This document shows, piece by piece, positions 3,172 to 48,524 of a stretch of 51,077 bases of DNA (within the stretch, counting starts at the first letter, position 1; the number at the start of each line of letters is the position of its first letter). Location of the stretch: sequence record ON528718. The stretch is one strand, 5' to 3'. The position numbers and the translations under genes were made by a program. The notes under the pieces were generated by a model. It searched no databases. It worked only from the letters and a program-made list of their open reading frames with translations, and was not told the DNA's origin. The DNA is from Shigella phage ESh4.

Positions 3172-3218
3172 ATTATGCCCGACACAAGGCCGGGCGTTTT
3201 AACAAAAAGTGCTATTTT
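3172..3218 (-). promoter_or_regulatory. conserved promoter-like unit (22-bp element + hairpin spacer + CATAAT)
   Basis: Sense: AAATAGCACTTTTTGTTAAAAC-GCCCGGCCTTGTGTCGGG-CATAAT; 22 bp between TTGTTA and CATAAT; stop TAG of upstream ORF lies inside element. Confidence 0.55.
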
Positions 3219-3451
3219 GACGCTAATTCGTAAAACTCTTGCAAGTCTTTACCGATCTGCTCATGCCATTTTTCAAGCGGTAGTTTTCTTGTTTCCTCAA
3301 AACTCATATCTAATGCGCTTGAAAATTCCCACGGATCGCAATCAATCATCTTTTTCACGTTAGGGTTTTTATCAAGTGCATCGCATACCATAGCGCGATA
3401 CAAAAGAAATTCGCCATATTCATTAAGTAAAACTCTTCTTTCTTTCTGCAT
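3212..3451 (-). CDS. hypothetical protein (79 aa)
   Basis: ORF track; stop codon TAG embedded in conserved element AAATAGCAC. Confidence 0.5.
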   Translation of the reverse strand: MQKERRVLLNEYGEFLLYRAMVCDALDKNPNVKKMIDCDPWEFSSALDMSFEETRKLPLEKWHEQIGKDLQEFYELASK

Positions 3452-3455
3452 GGTT

Positions 3456-4157
3456 TTAGCTCCGTTTCCTTGCGCGACGGCCTTTGACAGAAGGGCACAT
3501 ATCGCTTATTTTCACGTAATGCGTTTGCTGTTGCTCTCCGCCTTTCAGTTGGCGCATAACAAAAATAACGCTTCCTTTATTGTTGCCTTGTACGGACTCA
3601 CCAGTCAGGCCAGAAATGAAGGCAAGTCGTCCGGTGCGGGAGCATTCCACACCTCCTTCCTCGTACACCTCGCCAGTGATCCAGATGATTTCCGCAGCGT
3701 GCTTTTGCGCTTCGTAAAACCAGGCTGTCGAGTTGTCCGCTGGCAACAAAATATCAATCTGGTTGTTGTGTTCCATTTGCTCAATCGCCTTCTTAACAAA
3801 TGGCGTAATATTGCTGTACGGTGGATTCAGCCATATATGCTTATTACTACCCCACCAACGCTTTAGGCAGTTGGTTTCCTTGCTATAAAACTTCTCGCAA
3901 ACTGCGTTTTCTGCTGATGCTGCCGCGTCGAGATCGTATTTCCCATATCGTCCAGACATCCACGCAACAACCTCCGGCGGCGATTGCCACAAATCGCGCA
4001 CAATGTCCGGCGTATTGCTGCCGTTATAGCGGTTGCCAGTCACTTTGAAATATTGATTTGGTTTAACAGCCTGATAATGACCACCAGTAGCAAGAGCATT
4101 ACCAATGAATGTTTCGCGTTCTATTTGTTCAAATGTCACTTCAGTTTCTTTGCTCAT
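3456..4157 (-). CDS. dam: DNA N6-adenine methyltransferase (Dam-like)
   Basis: NPPY catalytic motif (WLNPPYSN), DLDAAAS SAM-binding-like motif; typical phage Dam size. Confidence 0.8.
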   Translation of the reverse strand: MSKETEVTFEQIERETFIGNALATGGHYQAVKPNQYFKVTGNRYNGSNTPDIVRDLWQSPPEVVAWMSGRYGKYDLDAAASAENAVCEKFYSKETNCLKRWWGSNKHIWLNPPYSNITPFVKKAIEQMEHNNQIDILLPADNSTAWFYEAQKHAAEIIWITGEVYEEGGVECSRTGRLAFISGLTGESVQGNNKGSVIFVMRQLKGGEQQQTHYVKISDMCPSVKGRRARKRS

Positions 4158-4191
4158 TTCTTAATTACCTGTTGCTTGTTGAACTGGTGTT

Positions 4192-4237
4192 ATTATGGCG
4201 CAATCCTTCGCGCCTGTTTTAACAAAAAGTGCTATTT
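4192..4237 (-). promoter_or_regulatory. conserved promoter-like unit
   Basis: Sense: AAATAGCACTTTTTGTTAAAAC-AGGCGCGAAGGATTGCGC-CATAAT, hairpin GGCGC/GCGCC in spacer; 35 nt upstream of Dam start. Confidence 0.55.
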
Positions 4238-4651
4238 CATCATGTATTCTACCGCGATCATGAATTGCTTATATCCGTATGTTACGGCAGCGAATCCGCC
4301 AAGCTCACGCACACGACGCAAGAAGGCTTTTTGCTCCTTGCTTACTTGTGATGCCTTACCCTTGCCGGACTTATTGACGCGCTTCATCTCTATTGCCGCG
4401 AAAGGGTAACGGCCTTTTAATCCAATCAGGATGATAAAATCACTTACGCCCTTAACAAGCCCAGCTTGCTGATCCATCATTGCGGTGGCGATCCCCTTTT
4501 CCCCCTCATTTTTAGTATGCCATGCCAGCAATTCAGGATGAGCATAAGTTACCCATTGAAACGCGCCTATCTGATGCGATTCTTCTTTTAGTGTATCTGT
4601 CGGATCTCTTTCGTAAAACTCCAGATAATCGCCTTTATCAGTCATTGCCAT
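4232..4651 (-). CDS. VRR-NUC domain nuclease
   Basis: VRR-NUC-like core (SDFIILIGLKGRYPFAAIEMKRV...GKASQVSKEQKAFL); start moved to ATG at 4651 with AAGGA RBS to avoid 47-nt overlap with helicase. Confidence 0.65.
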   Translation of the reverse strand: MAMTDKGDYLEFYERDPTDTLKEESHQIGAFQWVTYAHPELLAWHTKNEGEKGIATAMMDQQAGLVKGVSDFIILIGLKGRYPFAAIEMKRVNKSGKGKASQVSKEQKAFLRRVRELGGFAAVTYGYKQFMIAVEYMMK

Positions 4652-6677
4652 AATTAAATTCCTTCTTGTACAAATTATCTTCACCCTTGCTAGTCTTGCG
4701 GTGAGTTACACGCGATGGTGGCATGATGTGATTCACATATTGCATGATTTTACGTGCATTACGATAGCTCGCCACCATGCCAGCAACACGGCGATCTGGT
4801 ATGTGCTTAAGAGCAACGCTTCGCCATTTTGCGCGGCAAATTTGGCTCTCAGATTCAGGGAAAAATATCTCTCTCGCCCTGAAAGTGTCTATGCCATCGG
4901 AAAGCTCATAATTAAATATTATCCCTTTCTGGTTTTTCGTCATGTCAACCGAGAAAGATTGCACCTGAAACCAGTCGTTTTTTGTGTAGTGCTTTCCGCT
5001 TAACTTCTCGTTAGGGTCAATCAATGACATGTCGCAATGTCTGCATACCCTGGCCGCAATATCATTTTTCGTTCCACAACCGCGCTGAATAATCTTTTTA
5101 GTGCGCGGGTCAATCTGATCATCGCATGTCCTGAATTTAAAGAACCACTCGCATCTGTTGCCGTTTTCGTCTACGTGCATACAGCGACGAGCATAATAGC
5201 TATTAAGAGTTCCGCAAATAGGGCAAGGCTTCGGATCTTTACCATTTCTGAATCGCTTCTGATGCTGCGCCTGTTCAAGTATCGGATCAAAATAAAGCTC
5301 GCCTAACTCATCCATCGTTCCTGAAAAATCCATTACGAGGTGATCATCTTTCTTGAATCCTTGCTCCTTATGCCACTTCTTAAGCAGTCGCATTCCACGC
5401 CCTAAAAGCTGAATCAGCAAAGTTAGCGATCCAATCTTACGCAGAATAACAGACGTATCCCAAAACGGCACGTTAACGCCAGTAGTTAGCGCCTGAACCT
5501 GGAAGATGTATTTTACCTTCCCTTCGTATGCTTCCCTCAACCACTCCTTGCGCTGATTGTCGCCAGTCTTACCAGTAATGATCCTGTAAGTAGTTCCAGG
5601 TGGCAACGCTGCCGCTGCCTCTTTGCAATGCCTTTCTCCTGCACATGTCACAAGTACGCCGTTGCGGTTTTTACAGATCTCGTGAACTTTCGCCATGATG
5701 CGCTTTGTCATGGTCGCTTCTTCATGAATTTTTTGTTCCATCCTGCGAAGCGTTTTAGCGTCAAAGTCTGCAACGCCATCCTCACTGGATGCCTCAAACT
5801 CTGAAAGGTCATACCCTAGATCGCCAACGTCGCCAAAATTTGTTGGCACAACAGAACCGAATTTGATCAGGTAGTTGGTGTCAATATTAGTAACCTGTTC
5901 ACGCCAGAATCCTTTCTGTTTTTTGTCTTCTACCAGGATCGGGACTACGCCGCGAAACTCCGATCCAGTCATGCCAAATATGCGCAGTTCATGGCCATAT
6001 GCTTTCCTGCATCGGCGCATCATTTCCATGATAATGACAGTGTATTGTGTGCGGCCTGTTCCCTCCATTGGCAAGCCATCCTCACCAATCAGGAACTCTT
6101 CGCATTCGTTATCGCTCGTTATGTCATAATCTGGATTTGGTACTTTTTCGCCTTTCTTCGTCGTCATTTGTAAAAATGATTCGTCTTTCTCTATTGCGTC
6201 GGCAAGGTCTTCCCAATCCACCTGGTGACACTCGTCAATCCCGATAACGTGCGGAACATAGTCGCCAAGCGCTTTAAACAGTCCATTAACTACAGTTCCC
6301 TCAGAACCAACAACTATCGGAAAGTATGCGCTTTTTGTCTTCAGTCCTGCGCAATAGATGGAGTTCGGCACGCCAAGATTTGTTATCTCTTCAGAATCCT
6401 GATCCACAATCTCAGCCTGGCGAGCAAGGACCATCATTTTTAATCCCATTTTCCGGCACTGGTGAGCAACCATTGCAAACATCAATGTTTTGCCAGCCGA
6501 TACGGACGCTTTAACAAAGAATGGATGCTCATAATTTTTCATACGTTTTGCGATCTCAGCGTATGCAACGCACTGGTAATGGTAAGGCACAATCTCGCCA
6601 ACAGTGAATCGCTCCTGAATGGATTTAATTACCGCTTCACCAAGTGCTGATATTTGCTTTTCAATGTTTGGAATCAT
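4638..6677 (-). CDS. SF2 DNA helicase with C-terminal zinc-ribbon
   Basis: Walker A (SVSAGKT), DExH box (IGIDECHQV), C-terminal Cys clusters (CPICG...C..C); start set at ATG 6677 (MIPNIEK) with AAAGG RBS, track start 6701. Confidence 0.8.
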   Translation of the reverse strand: MIPNIEKQISALGEAVIKSIQERFTVGEIVPYHYQCVAYAEIAKRMKNYEHPFFVKASVSAGKTLMFAMVAHQCRKMGLKMMVLARQAEIVDQDSEEITNLGVPNSIYCAGLKTKSAYFPIVVGSEGTVVNGLFKALGDYVPHVIGIDECHQVDWEDLADAIEKDESFLQMTTKKGEKVPNPDYDITSDNECEEFLIGEDGLPMEGTGRTQYTVIIMEMMRRCRKAYGHELRIFGMTGSEFRGVVPILVEDKKQKGFWREQVTNIDTNYLIKFGSVVPTNFGDVGDLGYDLSEFEASSEDGVADFDAKTLRRMEQKIHEEATMTKRIMAKVHEICKNRNGVLVTCAGERHCKEAAAALPPGTTYRIITGKTGDNQRKEWLREAYEGKVKYIFQVQALTTGVNVPFWDTSVILRKIGSLTLLIQLLGRGMRLLKKWHKEQGFKKDDHLVMDFSGTMDELGELYFDPILEQAQHQKRFRNGKDPKPCPICGTLNSYYARRCMHVDENGNRCEWFFKFRTCDDQIDPRTKKIIQRGCGTKNDIAARVCRHCDMSLIDPNEKLSGKHYTKNDWFQVQSFSVDMTKNQKGIIFNYELSDGIDTFRAREIFFPESESQICRAKWRSVALKHIPDRRVAGMVASYRNARKIMQYVNHIMPPSRVTHRKTSKGEDNLYKKEFNYGND

Positions 6678-6687
6678 TCTAAAACCT

Positions 6688-6715
6688 TTGAGTAATGCCA
6701 TTTAGCGTGTATAAT
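6688..6715 (+). promoter_or_regulatory. sigma70-like promoter for rightward block
   Basis: TTGAGT-16bp-TATAAT upstream of ORF 6767. Confidence 0.4.
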
Positions 6716-6755
6716 ACACAATCATTAAATCATCGTTTAACAAAAAATGCTATTG
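6711..6755 (-). promoter_or_regulatory. conserved promoter-like unit (helicase)
   Basis: Sense: AATAGCATTTTTTGTTAAAC + 21 bp + TATTAT; divergent with 6688-6715. Confidence 0.5.
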
Positions 6756-6766: not shown

Positions 6767-7240
6767 ATGAAAGAAAAGCGGATCGCGGTATCAACTGGCA
6801 AGATTGACAAACGCACAATCAATGGCAATAACGGAACTCGACGTGGTAAAGATAAGAAAAAGCGAAAGCGCCCTACAGGATACTATGTTTTAAAAGATGA
6901 AGTGCGCGCCGGGCTAAAAGCGCGACTTGATATCCTTATTGAGTATTACGGAAGTGTGTCAGCAATGGCAAAACGTCTTAACGTTAGCCAGCAAACTGTA
7001 AATCAGTGGCGTGTTCGCGGTATGATTTCAGCCGCTGGCGCTCAAAAGGTGCATAACGATTACAAAAAATATGGCTGCCAAGGCTATCGCGCGTCATTCT
7101 GCCGTCCAGATCTGCGATTTGATTCCAATGGTAAACCGCTCACAAAGAGATGTGATAAGCGTGAAATGTTGCGAGTGGTAAGAATGTCAGATTATGAACC
7201 TAGCGGATTCCTGTATAAACCTGAAAGCACTAATTGCTAA
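6767..7240 (+). CDS. HTH DNA-binding protein (Cro/YdaS-like motif)
   Basis: MAKRLNVSQQTVNQWRVRGMIS helix-turn-helix signature; basic N-terminus; GGAGAA RBS. Confidence 0.55.
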   Translation: MKEKRIAVSTGKIDKRTINGNNGTRRGKDKKKRKRPTGYYVLKDEVRAGLKARLDILIEYYGSVSAMAKRLNVSQQTVNQWRVRGMISAAGAQKVHNDYKKYGCQGYRASFCRPDLRFDSNGKPLTKRCDKREMLRVVRMSDYEPSGFLYKPESTNC

Positions 7241-7295
7241 AAACAATGCCTGGCATGATGTTATCATCTGTCAGGCTTTTTTGCTTGAGGTGTAT

Positions 7296-8326: not shown

Positions 8327-10171
8327 ATGGCAATTTACAGAACCGGACAAGCGTCAATGGACGCTCAAGGTTATATCACTGGATACGACACGAAATGGCG
8401 AGAGCAACTAACGCTCATTCGCCCTGGTGCAACAATCTTTTTCATTGATGCACCATTTCAAGCGGCTGTGATCAGTGAAGTTATCAGCGATACACAAATA
8501 CGCGCTATCACAACTGGCGGCGCTGAAATTGGTAGAAGCAACTACATTATTTTGCTGCATGACTCAATCACTGTTGATGGCCTGGCGCAAGATGTTGCGG
8601 AAACTCTTCGCTACTACCAAAGCAAAGAAACTAAGATCGAGGAAGCTATTGAATTTTTCAAAAACTTTGACCTAAAACACTTGGAAGATCTGGCTAATCA
8701 GGTTAAAGGTGATGCAGAGAAAACGGCAGATGATCGTGCTGCTACTGAACAACTGAAAAACGACACTCAACAGATAAAGGATTCTGCTGTTGCTGAAACA
8801 AACCAGATTAAAGTAGACACTGACGCAATCAAGGAGCAAACGCAACAGATTAAAGATTCTGCGATAACGGAAGTTAATTCCGCACGCGATCAAGGTGTTT
8901 TAGCTGTAAACCAGACTAAAGATCAGGCTGTTTCAGAAATGAATCAGATAAAGGGTGATGTTTCGAATCTGAAAAACGAAGCTATTTCAGCAAGGGATTC
9001 CGCACAGCAATACATGAATGGCGCTCAGGCTGCAAATAGCGCCGCTGAAACTGCAAAAAACGGAGCTGTTACTGCGCGAAATGAGGCTGAAGAATTTGCT
9101 AAAGGCCTTAACGCTGAAAATCTGCTTAGAAAAGATGCGAACCTTTCAGATCTGTCTAACGTTGAAATTGCTCGTAAAAACTTAAAAGTACAGTCCGTTT
9201 ATAGTAAAGATCCAGCGACTAATTCAGATCCAGGGGACTATAATTCTTTCAGAAATCCAAATGAGTCGTATGAACTACGAATATCAAATAACGGAAATTG
9301 GTTAGTGGCTAATAATCAAGATGATTCAGTTTCTGCGCTATCTATTGATGCAGGTGGTACTGGAGCGTCGAATGCTTCTGACGCAAGGAAAAATATTGGA
9401 TTAAGCAATACAGATCATGTTTCATTTGAAGGAGTTAACGCAGCAAACGGTTTCTCTTGTACCGTTAGATCTAGCCCGTGGAGTGTTGGATATGATAACG
9501 CGTCGTTTTCAGGTGGATTGATATTCAATAACGATCATGGTTACGTGCCTATAATTTACGGTGGAACACAATCTACATCAGGTTACAGATTAAGGATGGG
9601 GATGGGCGTCCTTCCAAGCGGGAATACAAGCTGGCCTATGGGATTGATTCAAATCCTCGGAGACGACACATACTGGCGCGTGTTTGCGCTAGGTTACGAT
9701 GGGAATCTTCAAACCTGGACTTCAGAATCAGGCGGATGGACTGGTTCTTACGATTTTGCAAAAAATCCAACGTCTGACAGAGATCTGAAAAAAGACATCG
9801 TTTATACGGATGGAAAAGAAAGTTACGATCGCGTAATGCAATGGCTTCCGACAATGTTTAAGTATAAGCGAGATGATGTTCAGCGTTACGGACTGATTGC
9901 TCAAGACATGTTAAAAATCGATCCTCAATATGTGAAACTTGTACAAGGATCACCAGTATTTGAGGATGTGATCGGGGTTGATGACAATGGTGAAGAATAC
10001 ATTGATCGTCAGATTGAAACTGACAGAAATGATGATACATTGGCGCTTGATAGCAACGTTATGCTAACTGATATGGCTTGCGCTATGGTTTACATGGGAG
10101 GAATGATCGAAAAACAGCAAAAGGAGATAGACGAATTAAAGGCGGCTGTTGCTGCACTGCTCAATAAATAA
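8327..10171 (+). CDS. tail fibre protein with C-terminal intramolecular chaperone (peptidase S74-like) domain
   Basis: Repeated ...QQIKDSA... fibrous segments; C-terminal region (DLKKDIVYTDG...YGLIAQDM...LDSNVMLTDMACAMVYM...coiled coil) resembles the autoproteolytic chaperone domain of T5 pb1/endosialidase; ATG 8327 with GGGAGA RBS. Confidence 0.65.
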   Translation: MAIYRTGQASMDAQGYITGYDTKWREQLTLIRPGATIFFIDAPFQAAVISEVISDTQIRAITTGGAEIGRSNYIILLHDSITVDGLAQDVAETLRYYQSKETKIEEAIEFFKNFDLKHLEDLANQVKGDAEKTADDRAATEQLKNDTQQIKDSAVAETNQIKVDTDAIKEQTQQIKDSAITEVNSARDQGVLAVNQTKDQAVSEMNQIKGDVSNLKNEAISARDSAQQYMNGAQAANSAAETAKNGAVTARNEAEEFAKGLNAENLLRKDANLSDLSNVEIARKNLKVQSVYSKDPATNSDPGDYNSFRNPNESYELRISNNGNWLVANNQDDSVSALSIDAGGTGASNASDARKNIGLSNTDHVSFEGVNAANGFSCTVRSSPWSVGYDNASFSGGLIFNNDHGYVPIIYGGTQSTSGYRLRMGMGVLPSGNTSWPMGLIQILGDDTYWRVFALGYDGNLQTWTSESGGWTGSYDFAKNPTSDRDLKKDIVYTDGKESYDRVMQWLPTMFKYKRDDVQRYGLIAQDMLKIDPQYVKLVQGSPVFEDVIGVDDNGEEYIDRQIETDRNDDTLALDSNVMLTDMACAMVYMGGMIEKQQKEIDELKAAVAALLNK

Positions 10172-10186
10172 CAATATTTTTAACTC

Positions 10187-15620: not shown

Positions 15621-15690
15621 TGATGTTCACTTTTTGAGCTAAATTTAAGCCTCCGCAGATTTGAGAACACTGGAGAACAAAAAGAACAGA

Positions 15691-15733
15691 ATAGCACTTT
15701 TTGCTAAACGCCTACCGTAAGATCATGTATAGT
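15691..15733 (+). promoter_or_regulatory. conserved promoter-like unit (variant TTGCTA)
   Basis: ATAGCACTTTTTGCTAAAC + 21 bp + TATAGT, 32 nt upstream of ORF 15765. Confidence 0.5.
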
Positions 15734-20437: not shown

Positions 20438-20482
20438 GCTTTTTCACCTTTTGTGCTATTTGATTTGTTGAATTATACGGGC

Positions 20483-26906: not shown

Positions 26907-26952
26907 TGATAGCACTTTTTGTTAAAAGAATTGATTATGAATCGTGTATCAT
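26907..26952 (+). promoter_or_regulatory. conserved promoter-like unit in inverted (antisense) orientation
   Basis: Plus strand ATAGCACTTTTTGTTAAAAG + 22 bp + TATCAT, pointing rightward into the leftward tail operon. Confidence 0.4.
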
Positions 26953-30665: not shown

Positions 30666-30693
30666 ATGATAGCATTTTTTGTTAAACGTGCAA
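30666..30693 (-). promoter_or_regulatory. sigma70-like promoter for major capsid gene (TTGCAC-16-TATCAT)
   Basis: Built from an inverted copy of the conserved element (plus 30669-30687). Confidence 0.45.
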
Positions 30694-34909: not shown

Positions 34910-34939
34910 TTTGATTATATATTGGTTTGTCGATTCGTG

Positions 34940-36508
34940 CTATTTGTTCCGCAAACCTGCCAATTTTTTCATTCTTCCTACCGGATCATCTGCCATGTTC
35001 ATTTCAATGTTAACAGCATCAATGATGTTATCAACAATATCATCATGAGGATGGCTATCATCGAATGTAAACGCCGCAACTTCAGCGAGAATCTCAGCCA
35101 GCATAGGATGAGATTCTGGAAGTGCCACGCGTCCGGCGCGCATTACTGGTGCTGCGTCCATTGCGCGAGTAACCTTGTCTTTATCTCGCTGAACTGGATT
35201 GATCTTGATCATGATTTTTTTCGCTGCGCTCTGAATCAAGCCAGTGCCAGATGACTTGTCTTCAACATGAATCCTTCGCAACGTTCCGCATTCTTTATTG
35301 CGCTTCCAGCACTGATTAACGAACGCAACAAAATTCGTCTCAAGGTCCGGTGCTTCCCATTTTCCGCGAACGCCATCAATGAAGTAGACACGATCTTTAT
35401 ACATCCCCCAATAACAGATCACGGAATAGTCGTTAAGCTCACCTGTTTTCTGCGCGGTATCAACCGTGATAAATGTATATTCAAAGCGATCCGGTTTTGG
35501 TAGTGTGCATTTCTCGCTGCTGCCGTAATACTGAAACCACTCTGTTTTAAACACGTTGCCGCCAAGCGCAACAGGCTGTTGCTGATACTGACTAGCGAAC
35601 GTGTACGGATCAGCATTTCGAAGTGCAAGTAATTCCTCCGCGCTTTCCTTAGCAGGCCAGAATGAATAATGAGCAACTCCATCAATCATCACTGGCTTAC
35701 TGGACAAAACATCGCGATCAAACTCAGGCTTTAACCAATCAGGAAGCGTTTCGCGATATTCCTTAGTAACTAGCGCCGGAATACTGACCACCTTAAACTG
35801 GATGCCGCCCATGCCGCCGTTTGTCATGAACCATGTTGAATCATTGACGTGTAGCCGTTGCTGGACCATTACGATTGGCGTTGTGTCCTTCATTCTACGC
35901 GATCGCACCGTGTTCTTTAGGCGCATGTGTCCGGCTTCGCGCTTCACCTTAGAAAGCATATCATCCGGTTTGTCTGGATCATCAAGAACCAGCATACCAG
36001 TAAATCCATCGTCCATGTAGCCGCCACGCAGACCAGTAACCTGACCACCGATAGAGCGCGAGTTAACTTGCAATTTAACCTTGCCACCATCGGTTACAAT
36101 TAAATCCTTTGCGCTCGCCTTCGCCAGTTTTCCAGGCCATAGCTCCTGCCATTCTGGAGAACCAATAATCTCTTTGATGCGGTTGCTATTCTGCTGGACA
36201 AGGCCATCACTAAACGAAAGATTAAGATTTCGCACCTTCTTACTTTTCAATGACGCATAAGGTGACATGTGGATCGAGAATATCTCTGTTTTACCGCTGC
36301 CTGGCGTTATGTTGAAAATTACGTTTTGTGACTCGCCTTTGATGATTTTTTCAACTTCGCTGCATAGGTAGCTGAAATGCCAGTTTCCTAAGAATTTCTG
36401 ACCTTGCAATAATTGAAACCAAATGCGGATCATCTTTTCGAATGAATATTCGCTCATTTCCTTAACGGCGCGTTTCTGCGCCGCTGTTAAGTCTTCCCAA
36501 ATCAGCAT
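34940..36508 (-). CDS. terL: terminase large subunit
   Basis: Walker A-like ITPGSGKT, Walker B-like LVLDDPD, C-terminal nuclease-like acidic residues; 522 aa. Confidence 0.85.
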   Translation of the reverse strand: MLIWEDLTAAQKRAVKEMSEYSFEKMIRIWFQLLQGQKFLGNWHFSYLCSEVEKIIKGESQNVIFNITPGSGKTEIFSIHMSPYASLKSKKVRNLNLSFSDGLVQQNSNRIKEIIGSPEWQELWPGKLAKASAKDLIVTDGGKVKLQVNSRSIGGQVTGLRGGYMDDGFTGMLVLDDPDKPDDMLSKVKREAGHMRLKNTVRSRRMKDTTPIVMVQQRLHVNDSTWFMTNGGMGGIQFKVVSIPALVTKEYRETLPDWLKPEFDRDVLSSKPVMIDGVAHYSFWPAKESAEELLALRNADPYTFASQYQQQPVALGGNVFKTEWFQYYGSSEKCTLPKPDRFEYTFITVDTAQKTGELNDYSVICYWGMYKDRVYFIDGVRGKWEAPDLETNFVAFVNQCWKRNKECGTLRRIHVEDKSSGTGLIQSAAKKIMIKINPVQRDKDKVTRAMDAAPVMRAGRVALPESHPMLAEILAEVAAFTFDDSHPHDDIVDNIIDAVNIEMNMADDPVGRMKKLAGLRNK

Positions 36509-39157: not shown

Positions 39158-39202
39158 ACTTTAACAAATGCCCTCGCGGAAGTTTTAACAAAAAGTGCTA
39201 TT
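39158..39202 (-). promoter_or_regulatory. conserved promoter-like unit
   Basis: Sense AATAGCACTTTTTGTTAAAAC + 22 bp + TAAAGT; upstream gene stop TAA abuts element. Confidence 0.45.
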
Positions 39203-39488
39203 AGCTCATGTAATAGATTTCATCGCGCACAAAATCGTCAAAATCAGATTGCGTTAATGGTCGATCCTCTAGTGCGGCCTGCTCAATCATTTCAACAAGG
39301 GCGCAATCCATATCAAGGTAATGCGCATCAAGATCATACCATGAAGCCATTTGACGCGCCCAGGAGCGGCAATTCTTGAGTCCGTAACGTCGGATACAGT
39401 TTGCCGTGTGAAATGAGTCATTCCAACCACACTCAAGCGCTGCCTTTTCGAATGCGTTAATCAACATCTTACGATTGCTTTTAGCCAT
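39201..39488 (-). CDS. hypothetical protein (95 aa)
   Basis: ORF track. Confidence 0.5.
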   Translation of the reverse strand: MAKSNRKMLINAFEKAALECGWNDSFHTANCIRRYGLKNCRSWARQMASWYDLDAHYLDMDCALVEMIEQAALEDRPLTQSDFDDFVRDEIYYMS

Positions 39489-40502: not shown

Positions 40503-40548
40503 ATTATAGCGAGGCATTGCGCCCCGCTTTTAGCAATTCGTGCTATTT
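40503..40548 (-). promoter_or_regulatory. conserved promoter-like unit (variant)
   Basis: Sense AAATAGCACGAATTGCTAAAAG + 22 bp + TATAAT; kinase stop TAG inside element. Confidence 0.55.
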
Positions 40549-41133: not shown

Positions 41134-41134
41134 A

Positions 41135-41773: not shown

Positions 41774-41804
41774 GATTTAATCCTCGTTTGTTGTAGATGG
41801 GCTT

Positions 41805-41851
41805 ACTATACCGAAAGCCCGATAATCTGTTTTTGCAAAAAGTGCTATTTT
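41805..41851 (-). promoter_or_regulatory. conserved promoter-like unit (variant TTGCAA)
   Basis: Sense AAAATAGCACTTTTTGCAAAAAC + 22 bp + TATAGT; upstream gene stop TAG inside element. Confidence 0.5.
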
Positions 41852-42784: not shown

Positions 42785-42814
42785 CGTTTTATCCCCTTCG
42801 TTGAAAGTGAGGCC

Positions 42815-42859
42815 ATTATACCTGGCCCCGCATTTGAGTTTTAACAATTCGTGCTATTT
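42815..42859 (-). promoter_or_regulatory. conserved promoter-like unit (variant)
   Basis: Sense AAATAGCACGAATTGTTAAAAC + 21 bp + TATAAT with GGCC...GGCC dyad around -10. Confidence 0.55.
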
Positions 42860-43748
42860 ACACTTTGACCTTCCACTTAACCATCGTTCCGCGCTTGATG
42901 CTAATCTCACCAGCAACGGTACGGTTTTTAGCGCCGCCATAGTGAAGCAGAAGAATAACAACATCATCATGAATCTCGATCGTCTTTGGCTTTGCCGTCA
43001 CCTCAAACCACATACCATCATCAAGCTGAACGCCTTTTAGTGTGGCGGCAACTGGCATATCTTCAATGGCGCCCTGCGTTACGATTTCTTGATTGGCAAA
43101 GGCGCTCTTATCAATACGCCAGCCTCCAGGTGCTTTCATTTTAACGGCTGCATTGTGGATCTCCTCGCCAATGGTTTTTTGAATTGACGTCTTCCCGCCG
43201 CCGAATGGTGTTTCCCCAAACAAGTGTTTTGTAATGTCTTCCACGTAGTACACCTTATCTTCTTCATTGTGTGGATTGAATTTGTTATGAGCGTTGACAA
43301 AGAAATCAACCTTAAGCTCTGATTTCTGACCGTCGCTATAAACGCCGTTGTCTTGTGACGTATAGCGAATCGTTGAGTTACCAACCGTGCGGAATACGAT
43401 CGGATACTTGATGTTATCCACGCTTAAGCACCACAATTTTTTATAGTCGCAGGTTTTCATATCTACCGTATGAATCTCTGCGCGTTCCGGTGAGCGCACT
43501 GGCAACACCTGGCCTTTATATGGCTTGTAGTGAAAACATGTGTATCCTGGCATTGCGTAACCGTAGTCTCTGAGTGAGTTGTAGTGTTTATTGTGCGCTT
43601 CAATTAAGTGTTCAATCTCCATTTTTGAAACATCAGGCTTTCCGTATTCGTTAAACTTAGTGCATGTATTTTTGTCTGAAAACATGAAGTGACCAACGCC
43701 GCGAGATTCGAAGGTGATTGGGAATTTAATGTTAGCAAGTTTTAACAT
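42858..43748 (-). CDS. hypothetical protein (296 aa)
   Basis: Largest unassigned early ORF; CAGGAGAAATAACC RBS. Confidence 0.55.
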   Translation of the reverse strand: MLKLANIKFPITFESRGVGHFMFSDKNTCTKFNEYGKPDVSKMEIEHLIEAHNKHYNSLRDYGYAMPGYTCFHYKPYKGQVLPVRSPERAEIHTVDMKTCDYKKLWCLSVDNIKYPIVFRTVGNSTIRYTSQDNGVYSDGQKSELKVDFFVNAHNKFNPHNEEDKVYYVEDITKHLFGETPFGGGKTSIQKTIGEEIHNAAVKMKAPGGWRIDKSAFANQEIVTQGAIEDMPVAATLKGVQLDDGMWFEVTAKPKTIEIHDDVVILLLHYGGAKNRTVAGEISIKRGTMVKWKVKV

Positions 43749-43803
43749 GGTTATTTCTCCTGATTGGTTTAACTGGGCGACGCCGTGCCGCCCTATGTGA
43801 TTT

Positions 43804-43849
43804 ATTATGCCTGGTTATCGTTTTTGAGTTTTAACAAAAAATGCTATTT
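43804..43849 (-). promoter_or_regulatory. conserved promoter-like unit
   Basis: Sense AAATAGCATTTTTTGTTAAAAC + 22 bp + CATAAT. Confidence 0.55.
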
Positions 43850-44033
43850 AGAATTTTACCTCTTCCACAAGCTCAACCATTTTATAACCAAGCCGATAAG
43901 AGTCACCGAACAACAAGATCCCCATAAATTCATCGTGGATTATTGACTCTTTGCCAACCGTTCTAAGCTCGCCGTTGTGAATCACAGTATCGCCGATCTT
44001 GATTTCTGATTTATGGACTAATTTCGTTTTCAT
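43848..44033 (-). CDS. hypothetical protein (61 aa)
   Basis: ORF track; stop TAA abuts conserved element. Confidence 0.45.
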   Translation of the reverse strand: MKTKLVHKSEIKIGDTVIHNGELRTVGKESIIHDEFMGILLFGDSYRLGYKMVELVEEVKF

Positions 44034-44048
44034 TTATTCACCTGCTAA

Positions 44049-44234
44049 TTAAAAGAAAGCTACATAGTTTGCAATGCCTTTGGCGTCGTCGTTTGGCATT
44101 GCCTTTACAGCCAGGTCATAACCTGATTCTACCTTCTGCTTTGCTGTTTCTTCGTTGTAACCCCAGATAACTAGGATTTTAACTACGTTTTCTTTGTTCA
44201 GGACTTTAAGGTCTTTGGTGATGCGACGTGCCAT
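44049..44234 (-). CDS. hypothetical protein (61 aa, trimmed)
   Basis: ATG 44234 with GAGGAAAACAAAA RBS downstream of unit 44268-44313 (track M is TTG). Confidence 0.45.
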   Translation of the reverse strand: MARRITKDLKVLNKENVVKILVIWGYNEETAKQKVESGYDLAVKAMPNDDAKGIANYVAFF

Positions 44235-44267
44235 TTTTGTTTTCCTCAATCTCGTTTCGATGAGGCT

Positions 44268-44313
44268 ATTATGCCAGGCTTTGCACCTGGCGTTTTAACA
44301 AAAAGTGCTATTT
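44268..44313 (-). promoter_or_regulatory. conserved promoter-like unit with CCAGG/CCTGG hairpin
   Basis: Sense AAATAGCACTTTTTGTTAAAAC-GCCAGGTGCAAAGCCTGG-CATAAT, near-identical to unit 48478-48524. Confidence 0.55.
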
Positions 44314-44317
44314 CCGC

Positions 44318-44566
44318 TCAGAGTCCAACATTCTCCTCATCGAATGCAGCCACAAGCCTTGCAAATACAGGATCTCCAGGCATTTCAATTTCAATGACCT
44401 TGATTTCCCTCCCGCATAGGCTTGTGTAAATCTCGCTCGCATCAGATAGCATGTCGCTAAACTCCTGCGCGGTGATTTCACATGCGGTCAAGTGGAAATC
44501 AACCGGTTTGTTAAAGCCCACCTCATCAATTTTTTCCATCAGCTCATCAAGAGTAAGTTTGCTCAT
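44318..44566 (-). CDS. hypothetical protein (82 aa, trimmed)
   Basis: ATG 44566 with GAGGAG RBS, overlapping stop of upstream ORF. Confidence 0.45.
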   Translation of the reverse strand: MSKLTLDELMEKIDEVGFNKPVDFHLTACEITAQEFSDMLSDASEIYTSLCGREIKVIEIEMPGDPVFARLVAAFDEENVGL

Positions 44567-44567
44567 T

Positions 44568-45038
44568 TTATTTCTCCTCATCGTTAAGGTATGTTTCTTT
44601 AATGATCGCGTGAAAGTCTGCGATCGCCTTAGCAAGTGTTTCATATTCATCTGGCGAGTAGTTCGCTAGGTTTGGTGAGACTTTAAGCATCGACTCAGCA
44701 ACCTGGCGTTTTGCTTTCGCTACAGCCTTCTCAAGCGCGGCCTTGTTGTATACCCTGCGATTAGGCGCACTAACAATCGCCACATCAAAGTAATTTTCCC
44801 CGAAATATTTGTGATCAGGGCCGTAAGGTTTCTTTGAAACTGAAACCCTCCCTTTCTCCGCCACTTCTGGAACTCGCCCCATAATCTGACGCAGATATGA
44901 TCCGGCATTGCTGGCTGACTTCTTGCCCTCCAGGTGCTGCCTTACCCATCTTTCAGGTATCTGGATCGATTCGTGCAATCCAGATGCGAGCGCAGTAGCA
45001 ACCTTGCGAAGCTCATTTGTAAATACAGATTCACTCAT
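44568..45038 (-). CDS. hypothetical protein (156 aa), first gene of leftward early operon
   Basis: ORF with GAGAGGG RBS downstream of TTGACA-17-AATAAT promoter. Confidence 0.5.
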   Translation of the reverse strand: MSESVFTNELRKVATALASGLHESIQIPERWVRQHLEGKKSASNAGSYLRQIMGRVPEVAEKGRVSVSKKPYGPDHKYFGENYFDVAIVSAPNRRVYNKAALEKAVAKAKRQVAESMLKVSPNLANYSPDEYETLAKAIADFHAIIKETYLNDEEK

Positions 45039-45069
45039 GCTTTATACCCTCTCGTGATTCAGTGGCTGC

Positions 45070-45098
45070 ATTATTATTTACCATTCCTGGCGTGTCAA
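45070..45098 (-). promoter_or_regulatory. sigma70-like early promoter (TTGACA-17-AATAAT)
   Basis: Perfect -35 TTGACA on minus strand, 17-bp spacer, AATAAT; 30 nt upstream of ORF 44568-45038. Confidence 0.5.
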
Positions 45099-45229
45099 AT
45101 GTTTTTTATTGTTATTGGCAGTTTTTCAATGTTGTCTTTTCATAGCACAACAAGATTCTCGTTTTTCTCCTTATAAATCAATGTTATTTTGGCGTGTTAT
45201 CTAAAAATGCGCGGATTCGCCCCTACCCC

Positions 45230-45370
45230 ATATATACATACCTGCCAACACACAACCACATACAATCACCAAAAATACATCAGACATCAATATGACCACA
45301 TAACATACATAACAGATAGTAATTTATAGATACATATAAATAAATAATCCTTATTTTTTAGTATGTTATA
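45230..45370. repeat. low-complexity CA-rich / TA-rich tract
   Basis: ccaacacacaaccacatacaatcacc...cataacatacataacagatag...; shares the 13-mer acacaaccacata with region 15430-15620. Confidence 0.6.
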
Positions 45371-45422
45371 TGGATTTCTCTTGTTATTTTTTGTTATGCG
45401 ATTCCACGCCGGAATAACACGC

Positions 45423-45460
45423 ATAACAGCGATAACAGAAGATAACAGATGTGCGCGCCA
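45423..45460. repeat. ATAACAG direct repeats (3-4 copies)
   Basis: cATAACAGcgATAACAGaagATAACAGatg; iteron-like. Confidence 0.5.
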
Positions 45461-45579
45461 GGATTGCCGAAAAGGACGCAAGAGGACCGCGTTTATCTAT
45501 CCCCTCCACACAAAAAGTTAATCAACTGATTAAAATTGATCAAACTCAAAGTCTCACAATCCAGGTGATCGCGAATGAG

Positions 45580-45619
45580 TTATTCCTGTTATTCCTGATT
45601 AATGGAATAGATGGAATAA
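45580..45619. promoter_or_regulatory. operator-like array of four TTATTCC half-sites
   Basis: TTATTCCTG TTATTCCTG attaat GGAATAGAT GGAATAAT: two direct repeats and two inverted copies with 9-bp period, just upstream of promoter unit 45632-45677. Confidence 0.5.
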
Positions 45620-45631
45620 TCGCCAGTTGAG

Positions 45632-45677
45632 AAATAGCACTTTTTGTTAAAACTGAATCCGCCTGATCGGGTACATT
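45632..45677 (+). promoter_or_regulatory. conserved promoter-like unit (first rightward gene)
   Basis: AAATAGCACTTTTTGTTAAAAC + 22 bp + TACATT, 40 nt upstream of ORF 45717. Confidence 0.5.
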
Positions 45678-45716
45678 ACACACATCGAAACGAGACACCC
45701 ATCAGGAGACGGTAAG

Positions 45717-45989
45717 GTGAACATCAGCAAAACCACTTTCAACTTTGCAAAGCGTCACGGTCTGGATCTGACTGTTGAAGACTTCGGCGATGTTCTGCAA
45801 CTCTGCATTTGGGAAGCGGATAACGATTGCGAGTGGCTTTGCTCTTATCGTATCAATTACGATTGCTTAACCTGGCACGGTAATATCTATCTGCCGCAAG
45901 AAGTGAAAGAGGAATTGCCAGCTACCATCAATAATGAAGTGTTTTTGCGCAAAGTCCTGAAGTTTATTGCTGATGAGATCAAGAAATGA
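45717..45989 (+). CDS. hypothetical protein (90 aa)
   Basis: ORF with AGGAGACGG RBS, GTG start. Confidence 0.5.
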   Translation: MNISKTTFNFAKRHGLDLTVEDFGDVLQLCIWEADNDCEWLCSYRINYDCLTWHGNIYLPQEVKEELPATINNEVFLRKVLKFIADEIKK

Positions 45990-46231
45990 TTAGTGAAGTG
46001 GATTTTGAACTTGCCGAGGCCCAGGTAAGGGCCAAAAAGATGGGTTTGCGTATACTGACGAAAACCGTGGAGTTTCCGTCGATGCCGTTCGCATCATTCC
46101 ATAAAGTGACGGTGTTCAGTAGCAAACGCGAGTTTAACGCGCTAATCCCTGCTGGTGATGATAAGCGCATGGCAAAATTTATTAACGAGTCCTGTGATGT
46201 TCTGATGGCAGTTAAACACGATCAACAATGA
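45986..46231 (+). CDS. hypothetical protein (81 aa)
   Basis: ORF track, ATGA overlap with upstream gene. Confidence 0.5.
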   Translation: MISEVDFELAEAQVRAKKMGLRILTKTVEFPSMPFASFHKVTVFSSKREFNALIPAGDDKRMAKFINESCDVLMAVKHDQQ

Positions 46232-46244
46232 AGGAGAAATAAAG

Positions 46245-46511
46245 ATGGCGCGAATCAATGCACCTATTCCAGTTAAGCGCAAAGCACGACTGCTTAACAA
46301 TGGATGTTACGCCCTGCGGCCTGATTTTAAAAAACGCACCTTTCCGGTTATCGTCAACGTGTCGCACGTAAGCCGTAGCGGGAATCTGGCCTTTGTTAAC
46401 GGTGAAGATCTGGCGGCGCTTGGATTCTATGGCGGTATTTACGGCGAACCGCTCGGATTCTGGCTTGTAAATCCGTCAACTGGAGAACGTGAAATCGAAT
46501 TCCTGGACTAA
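46245..46511 (+). CDS. hypothetical protein (88 aa)
   Basis: ORF with GGAGAAATAAAG RBS; stop TAA abuts conserved element. Confidence 0.5.
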   Translation: MARINAPIPVKRKARLLNNGCYALRPDFKKRTFPVIVNVSHVSRSGNLAFVNGEDLAALGFYGGIYGEPLGFWLVNPSTGEREIEFLD

Positions 46512-46555
46512 ATAGCATTTTTTGTTAAAACCGATGCGCCTATGATTGGTATATT
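46510..46555 (+). promoter_or_regulatory. conserved promoter-like unit
   Basis: AAATAGCATTTTTTGTTAAAAC + 22 bp + TATATT; -10 lies in loop of CGATGCGC...GCGCATCG dyad. Confidence 0.55.
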
Positions 46556-46586
46556 ATGCGCATCGACAACGAACGAGGATTTAAAA

Positions 46587-46751
46587 ATGGAAACACAGGT
46601 TGATGTTAAAGTTATTAAGCGCGACAAATCTCACGAGAAAGGAATCTTTAAGAAAGGCACTATCATCACCATTGATCTTGAGGATATGGAGGCTTACCAC
46701 TCAGGTCTAACTTGGAACGTGCGCAAATGTGAAAACGGCCTGTTCAAGTAA
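46587..46751 (+). CDS. hypothetical protein (54 aa, trimmed)
   Basis: ATG 46587 with GAGGA RBS; track start 46542 would lie inside the promoter unit. Confidence 0.4.
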   Translation: METQVDVKVIKRDKSHEKGIFKKGTIITIDLEDMEAYHSGLTWNVRKCENGLFK

Positions 46752-46783
46752 AATGGCTTTGAAACATACATGGAGATCATCTA

Positions 46784-46984
46784 ATGGCAAAGAAATTAAA
46801 ACTTAAATGCGTAGAAACTTATAACTCAACTTGGAAATTCACGCGAGGGAAAGAATACCCAATAATGGGAAATCTCAAAGAAGATCCTCATTTAATTTCA
46901 GATAATTGTTTAATGGAATGCAACGATGGATATATCGGTGCTGGTGTTCCAGGCCATAAATTTAAGCTGAAAAATAAGAAATGA
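46784..46984 (+). CDS. hypothetical protein (66 aa)
   Basis: ORF track; Lys-rich. Confidence 0.45.
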   Translation: MAKKLKLKCVETYNSTWKFTRGKEYPIMGNLKEDPHLISDNCLMECNDGYIGAGVPGHKFKLKNKK

Positions 46985-47080
46985 GGCTATTTATTTTCAA
47001 AAACGCTTGGATGGTGGCGGTTGCAAATGACCATTATGGTGGAGACGGCAAGCGAGCAAATCGCCATAGCTATTTCAACT

Positions 47081-47124
47081 AATAGCACGAATTGCTAAAC
47101 AATATTTCTCAAACCTGGTATAGT
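47081..47124 (+). promoter_or_regulatory. conserved promoter-like unit (variant)
   Basis: AATAGCACGAATTGCTAAAC + 21 bp + TATAGT. Confidence 0.5.
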
Positions 47125-47154
47125 TACCACGCCAAATATAATGAGGATTGCATA

Positions 47155-47382
47155 ATGAAAGCTAAAGTCACTAACATCATGCACACTGTTGATGCACATC
47201 ACCGCGTCGCCATTAAGATGGATAAATCTTGCGGAATCAACCAGTTAACCATCACGAGTGGTAAAGGTGTGTTTGTTGTTGGCTCACATCCAGGTAGTAA
47301 AATCCGCAAATATACACGCGAAGAATTGATTAAATTGCTTGAAGAAAACAGCATGTTTATTGAAAGCTGGAAAGCTGTATGA
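47155..47382 (+). CDS. hypothetical protein (75 aa, trimmed)
   Basis: ATG 47155 with GAGGA RBS downstream of unit 47081-47124. Confidence 0.45.
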   Translation: MKAKVTNIMHTVDAHHRVAIKMDKSCGINQLTITSGKGVFVVGSHPGSKIRKYTREELIKLLEENSMFIESWKAV

Positions 47383-47389
47383 TTAATCA

Positions 47390-47417
47390 ATGGGAGATTT
47401 CCGCCTCCCATTTTATC
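47390..47417 (+). terminator. possible hairpin terminator/attenuator
   Basis: ATGGGAG-N8-CTCCCAT followed by TTTATC. Confidence 0.35.
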
Positions 47418-47429
47418 AATGGGGAATAA

Positions 47430-47543
47430 ATGATTAAGGCGCTTGATATTTTATTTGGTGTTATGATTGGCCTTGTGGGTTTGCTTGTTTTTACTGCCGG
47501 GCTTGTAATTATTATTGCTGTTATTAAGGAGTTTATTAAATGA
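47430..47543 (+). CDS. small membrane protein (37 aa, below track cutoff)
   Basis: ATG 47430 with GGGGAATAA RBS; single TMD (ILFGVMIGLVGLLVFTAGLVIIIAVI); stop overlaps next start. Confidence 0.35.
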   Translation: MIKALDILFGVMIGLVGLLVFTAGLVIIIAVIKEFIK

Positions 47544-47764
47544 GTCAAGACGGTTTTTTTGAGCGACTGCAAAAAGCGGAAGATGCCGGACTGAATAAAG
47601 AGGCTGCGCTTGAAGTGGCATATAAGATCAGGACGCTTGATGATGCGCTTGGTGAAATGGATATGGATCATGAATGTGGCGCTGCGTTTGCAGATCCAAC
47701 GATGATTGTTAATGATTGTGGATGCAATTTTGATCCTAACTGTGCGCGATGCTTTCCGTTTTGA
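47540..47764 (+). CDS. hypothetical protein (74 aa, Cys-rich C-terminus)
   Basis: ORF with AAGGAG RBS; HECG...CGC...CARC motifs. Confidence 0.45.
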   Translation: MSQDGFFERLQKAEDAGLNKEAALEVAYKIRTLDDALGEMDMDHECGAAFADPTMIVNDCGCNFDPNCARCFPF

Positions 47765-47773
47765 GGTGATGAA

Positions 47774-48484
47774 ATGTATAAAGGTTTAATTTTCTCTTTG
47801 TTTGATGGATCTGGTAAAGCCGTTAAAGATTGGGCCGACGCTGGATATAAGTGCATTTGCTTTAATGCTGACGGTGGCGATCATGGTGATTACCAGTCAG
47901 TGCGCATACAGCATGAGAATATCGAATACGTTAACTTCTGGATTGATGAAAGATTTTACCACCGCGCGCGCTGGGAGGAATGGGGTATTCCTGACTTTAT
48001 TATGGCATTTCCTCCTTGCACACAATTAGCAAATAGCGGATCTCGTCATTGGGCTAAAAAGCGCGTGGAAAATCCTAACTTCCAGGATGAGGCCGCAGAC
48101 ACTTGCAAAATTGCGGCGCATATCGCTGATTATTTCGGTGTTCCGTACATGATAGAGAATCCTGTAGGAAAGTTATCAACGTTATGGCGGAAGCCTGATT
48201 ATACTTTCCATCCGTGCGATTATGCTGGCTATCTGCCGGAAGATGATAAGCATCCCGACTTCCCTGATATTATTCCGGCGCGGGATCGCTACTTTAAGAA
48301 AACATGCCTTTGGACTGGAAACGGATTTGTTATTCCTCCGCGCGCAACAATCCTTCCTAAAGAGGGCGACAAGGATAATCCTGGCTGGGCCAAAACTGGC
48401 GGAAAATCATCTCGCACAAAGATGATTCGCTCCCTCACACCGCGCGGTTTTGCTCGCGCCGTCTTTGAAGTAAACGCAAAATAG
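47774..48484 (+). CDS. DNA cytosine-5 methyltransferase-like protein (compact)
   Basis: Motif I-like LFDGSG, motif IV-like FPPCTQLANSG (Pro-Cys), motif VI-like MIENPVG; 236 aa; stop TAG inside conserved element. Confidence 0.5.
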   Translation: MYKGLIFSLFDGSGKAVKDWADAGYKCICFNADGGDHGDYQSVRIQHENIEYVNFWIDERFYHRARWEEWGIPDFIMAFPPCTQLANSGSRHWAKKRVENPNFQDEAADTCKIAAHIADYFGVPYMIENPVGKLSTLWRKPDYTFHPCDYAGYLPEDDKHPDFPDIIPARDRYFKKTCLWTGNGFVIPPRATILPKEGDKDNPGWAKTGGKSSRTKMIRSLTPRGFARAVFEVNAK

Positions 48485-48524
48485 CACTTTTTGTTAAAAG
48501 CCAGGTGTAAAAGCCTGGCATAAT
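48478..48524 (+). promoter_or_regulatory. conserved promoter-like unit with CCAGG/CCTGG hairpin
   Basis: AAATAGCACTTTTTGTTAAAAG-CCAGGTGTAAAAGCCTGG-CATAAT; 31 nt upstream of ORF 48556. Confidence 0.55.

Follow-up and report, generated by a model that had tools for sequence, protein, structure and literature searches.

The closest described relative of the element studied here is a 21-nt intergenic direct repeat, aaATAGCACnnnTTGnTAAAA, found in phages TLS, T1, Rtp and Rogue1 (German, Kropinski, Misra and co-authors 2024, PMC11447400). The function of that repeat was left open, and a stoperator, an enhancer site and an UP element were suggested (PMC11447400). We analyzed a 22-mer that recurs at gene junctions of Shigella phage ESh4 (sequence record ON528718) in a stretch of 51,077 nt, which is called the window throughout and to which all unqualified coordinates refer. 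The window belongs to a T1-like siphophage of the genus Hanrivervirus in the family Drexlerviridae. It shared approximately 93-96% identity with Escherichia phages vojen, egaa and herni and Shigella phage pSf-1 (approximately 95% with vojen), and its gene map was taken from the vojen annotation, which runs in reverse orientation relative to the window. The 22-mer has the same sequence as the TLS repeat, aaATAGCACnnnTTGnTAAAA, with the same AAA, TTT and GAA subtypes, and like that repeat it is intergenic, points with transcription and lies approximately 76 nt 5' of start codons. The TLS paper does not describe an overlap with stop codons, a fixed -10 box and leader, or hairpins, nor does it contain a link between hairpin and upstream gene, indel junctions or antisense copies. 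Our leading explanation, which we regard as probable, is that the 22-mer is the upstream recognition box of a composite gene-junction cassette in T1-like phages.

Composite cassettes are known from T4-like phages as promoter-early stem-loops (PeSLs) (Arbiol et al. 2010, PMC2839356; Comeau et al. 2014, PMC4122927). Promoter and terminator activities of PeSLs were measured, and mini-circles were formed (PMC2839356). Like the units in the window, PeSLs are repeated intergenic cassettes that start at the stop codon of the upstream gene. In both, the stem-loop is mostly found in the stretch from -35 to -10 or covering the -10 box, followed by a Shine-Dalgarno sequence and ATG. Both are concentrated among small variable genes, and the PeSL carries an early promoter, as is predicted for the unit here. 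Both also flank indels and replacements between close relatives and provide homology for cassette shuffling, with crossover in the motif. The two differ in sequence and setting. PeSLs have consensus sigma-70 -35 and -10 boxes, whereas here an invariant 22-mer replaces the -35 box, and PeSL stems are often polyG/polyC. The stop codon is part of the invariant motif here but in PeSLs merely falls within an AT-rich stretch. PeSLs belong to T4-like phages and their activities and mini-circles were measured, whereas the present unit belongs to Drexlerviridae and is known from sequence. Apart from a few passing mentions, we found no PeSL outside T4-like phages in the literature, and no paper linking the TLS repeat with PeSLs was found in the literature searched. 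We classify the units as PeSL-type cassettes in Drexlerviridae, with a noncanonical invariant box that supplies the stop codon.

The 9-mer AAATAGCAC occurred 10 times in the window versus 0.69 expected, and the 22-mer AAATAGCACTTTTTGTTAAAAC with at most 3 mismatches occurred 12 times versus 0 expected. Scanning the window with a position weight matrix (PWM) gave 19 copies with scores above nearly all shuffles. The consensus is aAATAGCAC-N3-TTGyTAAAAc; element positions are counted from the first base of the 22-mer, so that the TAG of ATAGCAC occupies positions 4-6, and copies are named by their first coordinate. In the unit, the 22-mer is followed by a spacer of 18 nt, the -10 box (YATAAT), a start site reading CA and the leader ATCGAAACGA, and then by a ribosome-binding site and ATG. 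Relative to the presumed transcription start, the 22-mer spans -52 to -31 (center -41.5), the spacer, which is free in sequence, -30 to -13 with G at -14, and the -10 box -12 to -7, with CA at -1/+1; after the conserved leader ATCGAAACGA comes a purine-rich stretch, and the ATG lies at about +27. The window, the genomes of four relatives and 120 stretches from IMG/VR together yielded 500 unique copies. The distance from 22-mer to -10 box was 18 nt in 413 of the 500, with G at -14 in 82%, C at -1 in 78% and A at +1 in 87%. The -10 hexamer read T/C-A-T-A-A/G-T, its second-position A and final T being invariant. Every strong copy had a -10 box 18 nt downstream and the conserved leader. Seventeen of the 19 window copies were oriented with the downstream gene, with the ATG approximately 76-80 nt from position 1, and two were antisense.

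TTGTTA was rejected as a -35 box, as its spacer to the -10 box would be 21-22 bp. Judged by eye, sigma-54 (-24/-12), CRP, DnaA box, IHF, Fis, PhoB box and T4 MotA box were rejected on spacing or sequence; for Lrp, 12 of 15 positions of a degenerate consensus matched by eye and were treated as chance. The UP element is similar in lying upstream of the core promoter and in the spacing of T-tract and A-tract. By its consensus an UP element is A/T-only and spans -59 to -38, whereas the 22-mer spans -52 to -31 and contains the invariant, G/C-containing AGCAC, and its tracts lie approximately 7 bp closer to the -10 box. A search of the literature for the unit sequence itself returned nothing relevant.

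The sequence-only reading had named ten ORFs (open reading frames) as ending in or against the element, and all ten coordinates were correct. The TAG at positions 4-6 was the stop of ORFs 3212-3451, 4232-4684, 40543-41148, 41845-42396, 47774-48484 and 48939-49160. ORF 39201-39488 stopped on TAA at positions 1-3 (TAATAGCAC), and ORFs 42858-43748, 43848-44033 and 46245-46511 stopped on TAA at positions 0-2, formed by one T and the first two A of the element. Two cases not on that list were added: 6767-7240 (TAA at 17-19, copy 7222) and a mini-ORF (TAA at 1-3, copy 47080). The terminase gene terL, also claimed, does end on AAATAGCAC at 34940, but only a borderline or relic copy (score 10.9) with the wrong -10 spacing follows. 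The isolated AAATAGCAC 9-mer at 20453..20461 (-) in the J leader, which that reading had also listed, proved not to be a unit copy: it showed 7 mismatches over the 22 positions, scored below the PWM threshold and lay downstream of TATAAT. Overall, 12 of the 13 or 14 window copies with a same-strand upstream gene had its stop in or against the 22-mer, copy 44292 alone having the upstream stop outside the element (TGA at -7). All seven TAG-terminated window genes with an annotated vojen homologue ended in AAATAGCA.

The same pattern was seen across the relatives. The stop-codon set comprised 454 copies with unique upstream context, of which 371 had a same-strand upstream ORF of at least 50 aa. 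Stops began at position 4 in 212 copies, at 0 in 43, at 1 in 32 and at 17 in 28, with few elsewhere. The upstream proteins were clustered into 106 unrelated families, each counted once by its commonest stop position: position 4 in 55, 0 in 18, 1 in 11, 17 in 10 and 10 in 2; in the other 10 families it lay upstream of the element. Over the 124 related loci, the stop was thus within the element or abutted it in 96 of the 106 families, and in 55 it was the TAG. Usage of the three reading frames was uneven (66:20:11; chi-square, p=2e-12), and TAG at position 4 outnumbered TAA at position 17 by 55 families to 10 (p=1e-8). Orthologous upstream genes differed in stop position (0, 1, 4, 10 or 17) between phages. 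When copies were found by positions 7-22 only and positions 1-6 were then read, the TAG was kept in 93% of copies without an upstream ORF and in 89% of those with one; only AA at positions 1-2 was commoner where an ORF ended there. Because the TAG is equally conserved without an upstream gene, the ATAGCAC box is conserved as DNA, and serving as a stop is a secondary use of it.

Positions 19-68 of the unit folded with a mean energy of -12.0 kcal/mol, compared with -7.0 for dinucleotide shuffles (n=439). Folding differed according to the upstream gene: cluster medians were -13.6 kcal/mol with an upstream ORF (95 clusters) and -6.3 without (40 clusters; p=4e-7). Within the window, a folding energy of -10.5 or stronger was reached by 12 of the 13 copies preceded by a gene and by none of the 5 others. 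The hairpins were GC-rich and took two placements, inside the spacer or with the -10 box in the loop, both of which were seen in the window. The helix started at approximately position 23, or 16 nt past the TAG, and copies with a stop at position 17 had later and weaker hairpins. True terminators with a U-tract were present at copies 7222 and 34924. These features are consistent with a hairpin that serves the upstream transcript, an early stop probably leaving it free to fold.

The junctions of gene gains and losses were compared between relatives. Of 49 independent clean-indel events, 27 had a junction within the unit or at the element's 5' edge (p=6e-4 versus random gene junctions, p=4e-15 versus random bases). 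A junction repeat of 16 bp or more was present in 12 events, in 10 of which the unit was that repeat, and at least 7 cassettes were cleanly flanked by two units. In at least 3 events (L093 versus L113, 20 nt; L047 versus L054, 24 nt; L005 versus L043, at most 37 nt) the 22-mer was the sole shared sequence, which places the crossover inside it. Partner genes were also more varied at the element: more than one partner family was seen at 37 of 42 junctions with the element versus 75 of 146 without it (p=1e-5), the latter including conserved structural modules. Junctions without the element were also tight, with a median gap of 2 nt. The greedy ORF set behind these junction counts, and behind the counts of ORF ends in the window and of antisense copies, includes some spurious calls and lacks some genes, which makes the counts approximate. 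Homologous genes are annotated in vojen as an Erf-like annealing protein and exonuclease VIII.

Individual events were visible when the window was aligned with its four relatives, where breakpoints fell at element positions 0-4 for copies 41829, 42838 and 44292. At copy 41829, a 53-aa gene that the window lacks separates the element from the polynucleotide kinase (PNK) gene in vojen, pSf-1 and egaa, with the junction at positions 1-4. In vojen the PNK gene terminates as ELK-TGA and in the window as ELK-TAG, loss of the 53-aa gene having occurred across a 4-bp AAAT repeat. At copy 42838, pSf-1 has an extra 50-aa gene upstream, with the junction at position 0/1; the deletion joined the T of the old TGA to the element's AA and so created a new TAA. 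In herni, a 1.1-kb replacement begins at position 0 of copy 44292, and pSf-1, egaa and herni carry a 424-bp two-gene cassette whose flanks are both units matching window 46511-46590. The two mini-genes lost from the window are homologues at two different loci. They belong to a family of approximately 50 aa (MxTWxLLI...C.EAR.Q...LC..K) that is always directly upstream of the element and nearly always ends on its TAG; copies include L001 5031-5192 (vojen gp13) and L002 19232-19384 and 20440-20601 (pSf-1 gp39 and gp43). A homologue of the mini-ORF at copy 47080 is an indel in L025 versus L070.

Several proposals of the sequence-only reading can be judged from these comparisons. Breakpoints at the element, which it had suggested looking for in related phages, were present in the 27 events above, some of them inside the 22-mer, and the opposite pattern of variable stop distance and unrelated breakpoints was not observed. 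Its notion of cassette-like shuffling of gene plus promoter is supported by the unit-flanked indels. The accompanying term moron-style fits in part: the shuffling stands, while the closest precedent is homology-driven PeSL shuffling and not the accretion of morons. As with lambdoid morons, a gene here would move together with a promoter and a terminator of its own. Morons are believed to be acquired through illegitimate recombination, without a conserved flanking linker (PMC2839356, discussion), whereas the conserved linker here is itself the exchange site. The alternative of a combined stop and transcription-restart signal gained circumstantial support from hairpins that were strong only with an upstream gene and began approximately 16 nt past the TAG; the restart half depends on a predicted promoter activity.

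Under the explanation we favor, host RNA polymerase would initiate transcription of the next gene at the unit, and the hairpin would act on transcripts of the upstream gene as an attenuator or 3'-end stabilizer. Tight packing would trim the upstream ORF back to the cassette, using the stops on offer, namely the TAG that is invariant in ATAGCAC or a TAA that the A-rich 5' edge completes. A stop in the cassette would release the ribosome some 16 nt ahead of the hairpin. As portable homology, the conserved sequence of 20-90 bp would let the phage recombination system delete, insert or exchange gene-plus-promoter cassettes, and a stop inside the invariant box would survive any such exchange. The data show the anatomy of the unit, the statistics of the stops, the association of hairpin and upstream gene, and the recombination junctions. 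Promoter and attenuator activities are predicted properties of the unit. The protein that reads the 22-mer and the reason for the preference for the TAG frame are likewise inferred.

A number of observations weigh against this explanation. The unit has no consensus -35, its best -35-like hexamer being TTAAAA (4/6 match at a spacing of 18-19 bp), and only two units were picked up when 38500-50000 was scanned for the sigma-70 consensus. Because of the missing -35 and the two units called, a phage or host factor may be needed at the unit. That region also held fewer promoter-like sites in the scan than shuffled sequence did. A literature search for start-site or transcriptome data from T1-like phages or Drexlerviridae found none. 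Most hairpins lack a U-tract and hence are not canonical terminators; in a comparison aimed at selection of the hairpin as RNA, the sense strand folds slightly more stably than the antisense strand, but G-U pairs are not enriched on the sense strand. The two conserved antisense copies are not explained by the cassette model. Since genes abut the unit, whole-gene indels must break near its edge, and the junction count is therefore partly forced; only unit-to-unit events prove homology-driven exchange. Copies and loci also share ancestry, and p-values are approximate even after clustering.

The unit was also present outside the T1-like phages. Klebsiella phage KP15, a T4-like myovirus (Straboviridae, Slopekvirus), has two T1-type units at 10042-10425 of its record, minus strand (L021 / L125 / L126), each with an ATAGCA box, TTGTTAAA, a hairpin and the leader CATCGAAAC. 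The TAG within the element ends KP15_14, and a TAA at positions 1-3 ends KP15_13B. Both units are annotated in GenBank as putative middle promoters, and the other promoters in the first 50 kb of KP15, the part scanned, were ordinary. Searching the genes that flank the KP15 units against the T1-like loci with tblastn gave no matches. The presence of the unit without homologous neighbor genes favors recognition by host machinery. A broader interpretation, which we put forward as speculative and rather doubtful, is that the unit serves enterobacterial phages as a universal gene-end/gene-start linker and is passed between phage families that are unrelated. It would combine one host-read invariant box, a stop codon for any upstream gene, an attenuator and a promoter; the two T1-type units in the KP15 variable region would be instances of its spread, and the antisense copies in the late operon a further regulatory use. 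If true, the unit would be a common currency for gene movement between virulent phages sharing a host.

Other explanations of the stop codons were weighed against the cassette model. The overlap might be a passive by-product, in which the box is kept for DNA recognition and ORFs of a compact genome simply run on to the first in-frame stop, with neither selection for stops nor a role in recombination. The equal conservation of the TAG with and without an upstream ORF agrees with this, as do the shifts of orthologues among positions 0, 1, 4, 10 and 17 and the tight packing of junctions that lack the element. Frame-neutral run-on, however, predicts similar numbers of TAG stops at position 4 and TAA stops at position 17, which were observed at 55:10 by family, and the frame without an in-element stop showed a pile-up at position 0 (18 families) with no upstream spread. 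Hairpin strength and position, moreover, varied with the upstream ORF and the stop position, and the two-unit-flanked cassettes and crossovers in the 22-mer show that the element is used in recombination. We rate run-on as unlikely. Selection might instead act on the stop itself, the TAG and A-rich 5' edge being kept as a built-in fail-safe and thereby shaping the box; cassettes carrying a stop for any upstream gene would then yield more viable recombinants. AAA at positions 1-3 was commoner where an ORF ended there (62% versus 34%), two frames contain stops and the third needs a single T at position 0. The TAA newly created at a deletion junction and the mobile mini-gene family that nearly always ends on the TAG point the same way. 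Even so, the TAG was as conserved in first-of-operon, divergent and antisense copies, which need no stop, although homogenization among copies could mask a difference, and by per-position information ATAGCAC is conserved as a block, stop-irrelevant bases included. We consider selection for stop function quite improbable.

A third possibility, which we would place between these two in likelihood, is that the 22-mer is a dedicated regulator site, either a stoperator-like roadblock or an activator site at -41.5, with stops located there as regulation acts at gene ends. The regulator would be a host factor or phage-encoded, the Cro/YdaS-like protein of 6767-7240 being one candidate. The 22-mer suits such a site in being asymmetric, present in many copies, mostly pointing with transcription and centered at -41.5 at a rigid distance from the -10 box of a unit that has no consensus -35; the window encodes a helix-turn-helix (HTH) protein, the Cro/YdaS-like one being the only such protein identified, and the stoperator and enhancer ideas were raised by the TLS authors (PMC11447400). 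Against a dedicated regulator, the units stand before genes whose transcription should come first, and T1-like phages are not known to encode a polymerase or sigma factor. In addition, the unit occurs in KP15 beside genes that have no homologue in the T1-like loci (a Cro-like homologue was not searched for in KP15), and hairpins, indel junctions and frame bias are left unexplained. The stoperators of mycobacteriophage L5 are the obvious comparison, being likewise many asymmetric sites oriented with transcription at or over gene ends. They are 13-bp repressor sites of a temperate phage that block elongation, and they come without a -10 box, leader or hairpin. For L5 stoperators the TLS authors cite Brown et al. 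1997. Strong copies here carry promoter-like parts and do not stand as sites alone; the T1-like family is virulent, with no repressor or integrase in the annotations read; and the motif seems unlike that of the L5 stoperator. Least probable by far is that the unit moves on its own, as a small mobile element with insertion sites at or beside stop codons. Its 5' edge would coincide with stops, as observed, and it could have reached an unrelated phage family (KP15) without neighboring genes. However, none of the 49 indel events consisted of the unit alone, the inserts being genes or genes plus unit; orientation and distance to the downstream gene are fixed; and neither terminal repeats nor target duplications were noticed in reading the junctions, no systematic search for them having been made.

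With the cassette model, the question left by the TLS paper on its 21-base repeat becomes a specific one, with a predicted start site, a hairpin, a stop-to-hairpin distance and recombination products. The model would take shuffling of the PeSL type, by way of regulatory cassettes, beyond T4-like myoviruses into a family of siphoviruses, and would explain the gain and loss of variable early genes in Drexlerviridae, which are much used in phage therapy collections. For annotation, TAG stops in T1-like genomes almost always mark the ATAGCAC box; for engineering, the units mark natural insertion points tolerant of added genes.

Copies in the window were also described individually. Among leftward units, 3196..3217 (-) is an exact consensus copy whose TAG (3212-3214) ends ORF 3212-3451; its unit reaches the ATG at 3139, and its spacer hairpin measures -13.0 kcal/mol (z=-2.7). 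The copy at 4216..4237 (-), also exact, supplies TAG 4232-4234 to ORF 4232-4684, a VRR-NUC homologue, with a hairpin of -11.4 kcal/mol (z=-3.0). At 39182..39203 (-), TAATAGCAC... provides TAA 39201-39203 as the stop of ORF 39201-39488 (hairpin -17.5). The GAA subtype was found at 40527..40548 (-), where TAG 40543-40545 ends ORF 40543-41148 (hairpin -14.5), and at 42838..42859 (-), where one T and A1-A2 form the stop TAA 42858-42860 of ORF 42858-43748. Between them, 41829..41850 (-) ends the PNK gene 41845-42396 with TAG 41845-41847. The copy at 43828..43849 (-) lends A1-A2 to TAA 43848-43850 of ORF 43848-44033 and has its hairpin 3' of the -10 box. The exact consensus copy 44292..44313 (-) has a hairpin of -15.4 kcal/mol; the upstream gene stops on TGA 44318-44320, 4 nt before the element.

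The rightward gene block opens in a divergent region with 45632..45653 (+), an exact consensus copy with neither a real upstream gene nor a hairpin. It is followed by 46510..46531 (+), whose A1-A2 complete TAA 46509-46511 of ORF 46245-46511, and by a weak copy, TAATAGCACGAATTGCTAAACA, at 47080..47101 (+) (PWM score 19.2), whose TAA at positions 1-3 ends a mini-ORF. At 48479..48500 (+), the DNA methyltransferase gene 47774-48484 ends on TAG 48482-48484 (hairpin -14.8). At 49155..49176 (+), TAG 49158-49160 ends ORF 48939-49160 (hairpin -15.5), and the helicase gene 49229-50812, which the unit would drive, follows. Two further copies lie in divergent intergenic regions and lack a hairpin: CAATAGCAT... 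at 6734..6755 (-), before helicase gene 4638-6701, which it would drive, with no same-strand upstream gene (minimum free energy -5.1, z=0.1), and GAATAGCAC... at 15689..15710 (+), 5' of ORF 15765-15995. The weak copy at 7222..7243 (+) (PWM score 14.9) ends 6767-7240 with TAA at positions 17-19 and is followed by a canonical terminator hairpin of -18.1 kcal/mol. The regulator gene 6767-7240 (+) thus sits between divergent unit 6734 and the weak unit and terminator at 7222. Its product, a transcriptional regulator in the relatives' annotation, gave only weak Cro/YdaS-type HTH matches, below Pfam thresholds.

The borderline or relic copy at 34924..34945 (-), on whose TAG terL (34940-36508) stops, has a PWM score of 10.9, within the range of shuffled sequence, a degenerate 3' half, wrong -10 spacing and a true terminator downstream. 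The terL-portal gap, 34871-34945 (-), contains in turn the degenerate ATAGCAC box, TATATAAT a few nt on and the canonical terminator, and may be a decayed unit.

Both antisense copies oppose minus-strand late genes. The copy at 26907..26928 (+) lies inside the minus-strand tail operon, between the terminator of the major tail protein gene and the ribosome-binding site of the chaperone gene. It is conserved, with the usual -10 spacing, in T1 and divergent relatives (L008, L009, L022, L052, L065, L076, L118). The copy at 30667..30688 (+) lies upstream of the major capsid gene 29648-30622 on the minus strand. These copies may be antisense promoters or a source of short RNA.

Two insertions absent from the relatives were observed inside conserved modules. 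The insertion at 12186-12646 contains a 145-aa ORF with weak matches to the small Pfam families DUF6510 and Stc1, and that at 21115-21665 contains a 189-aa ORF, without a Pfam match, between tail genes. Both may be selfish inserts.

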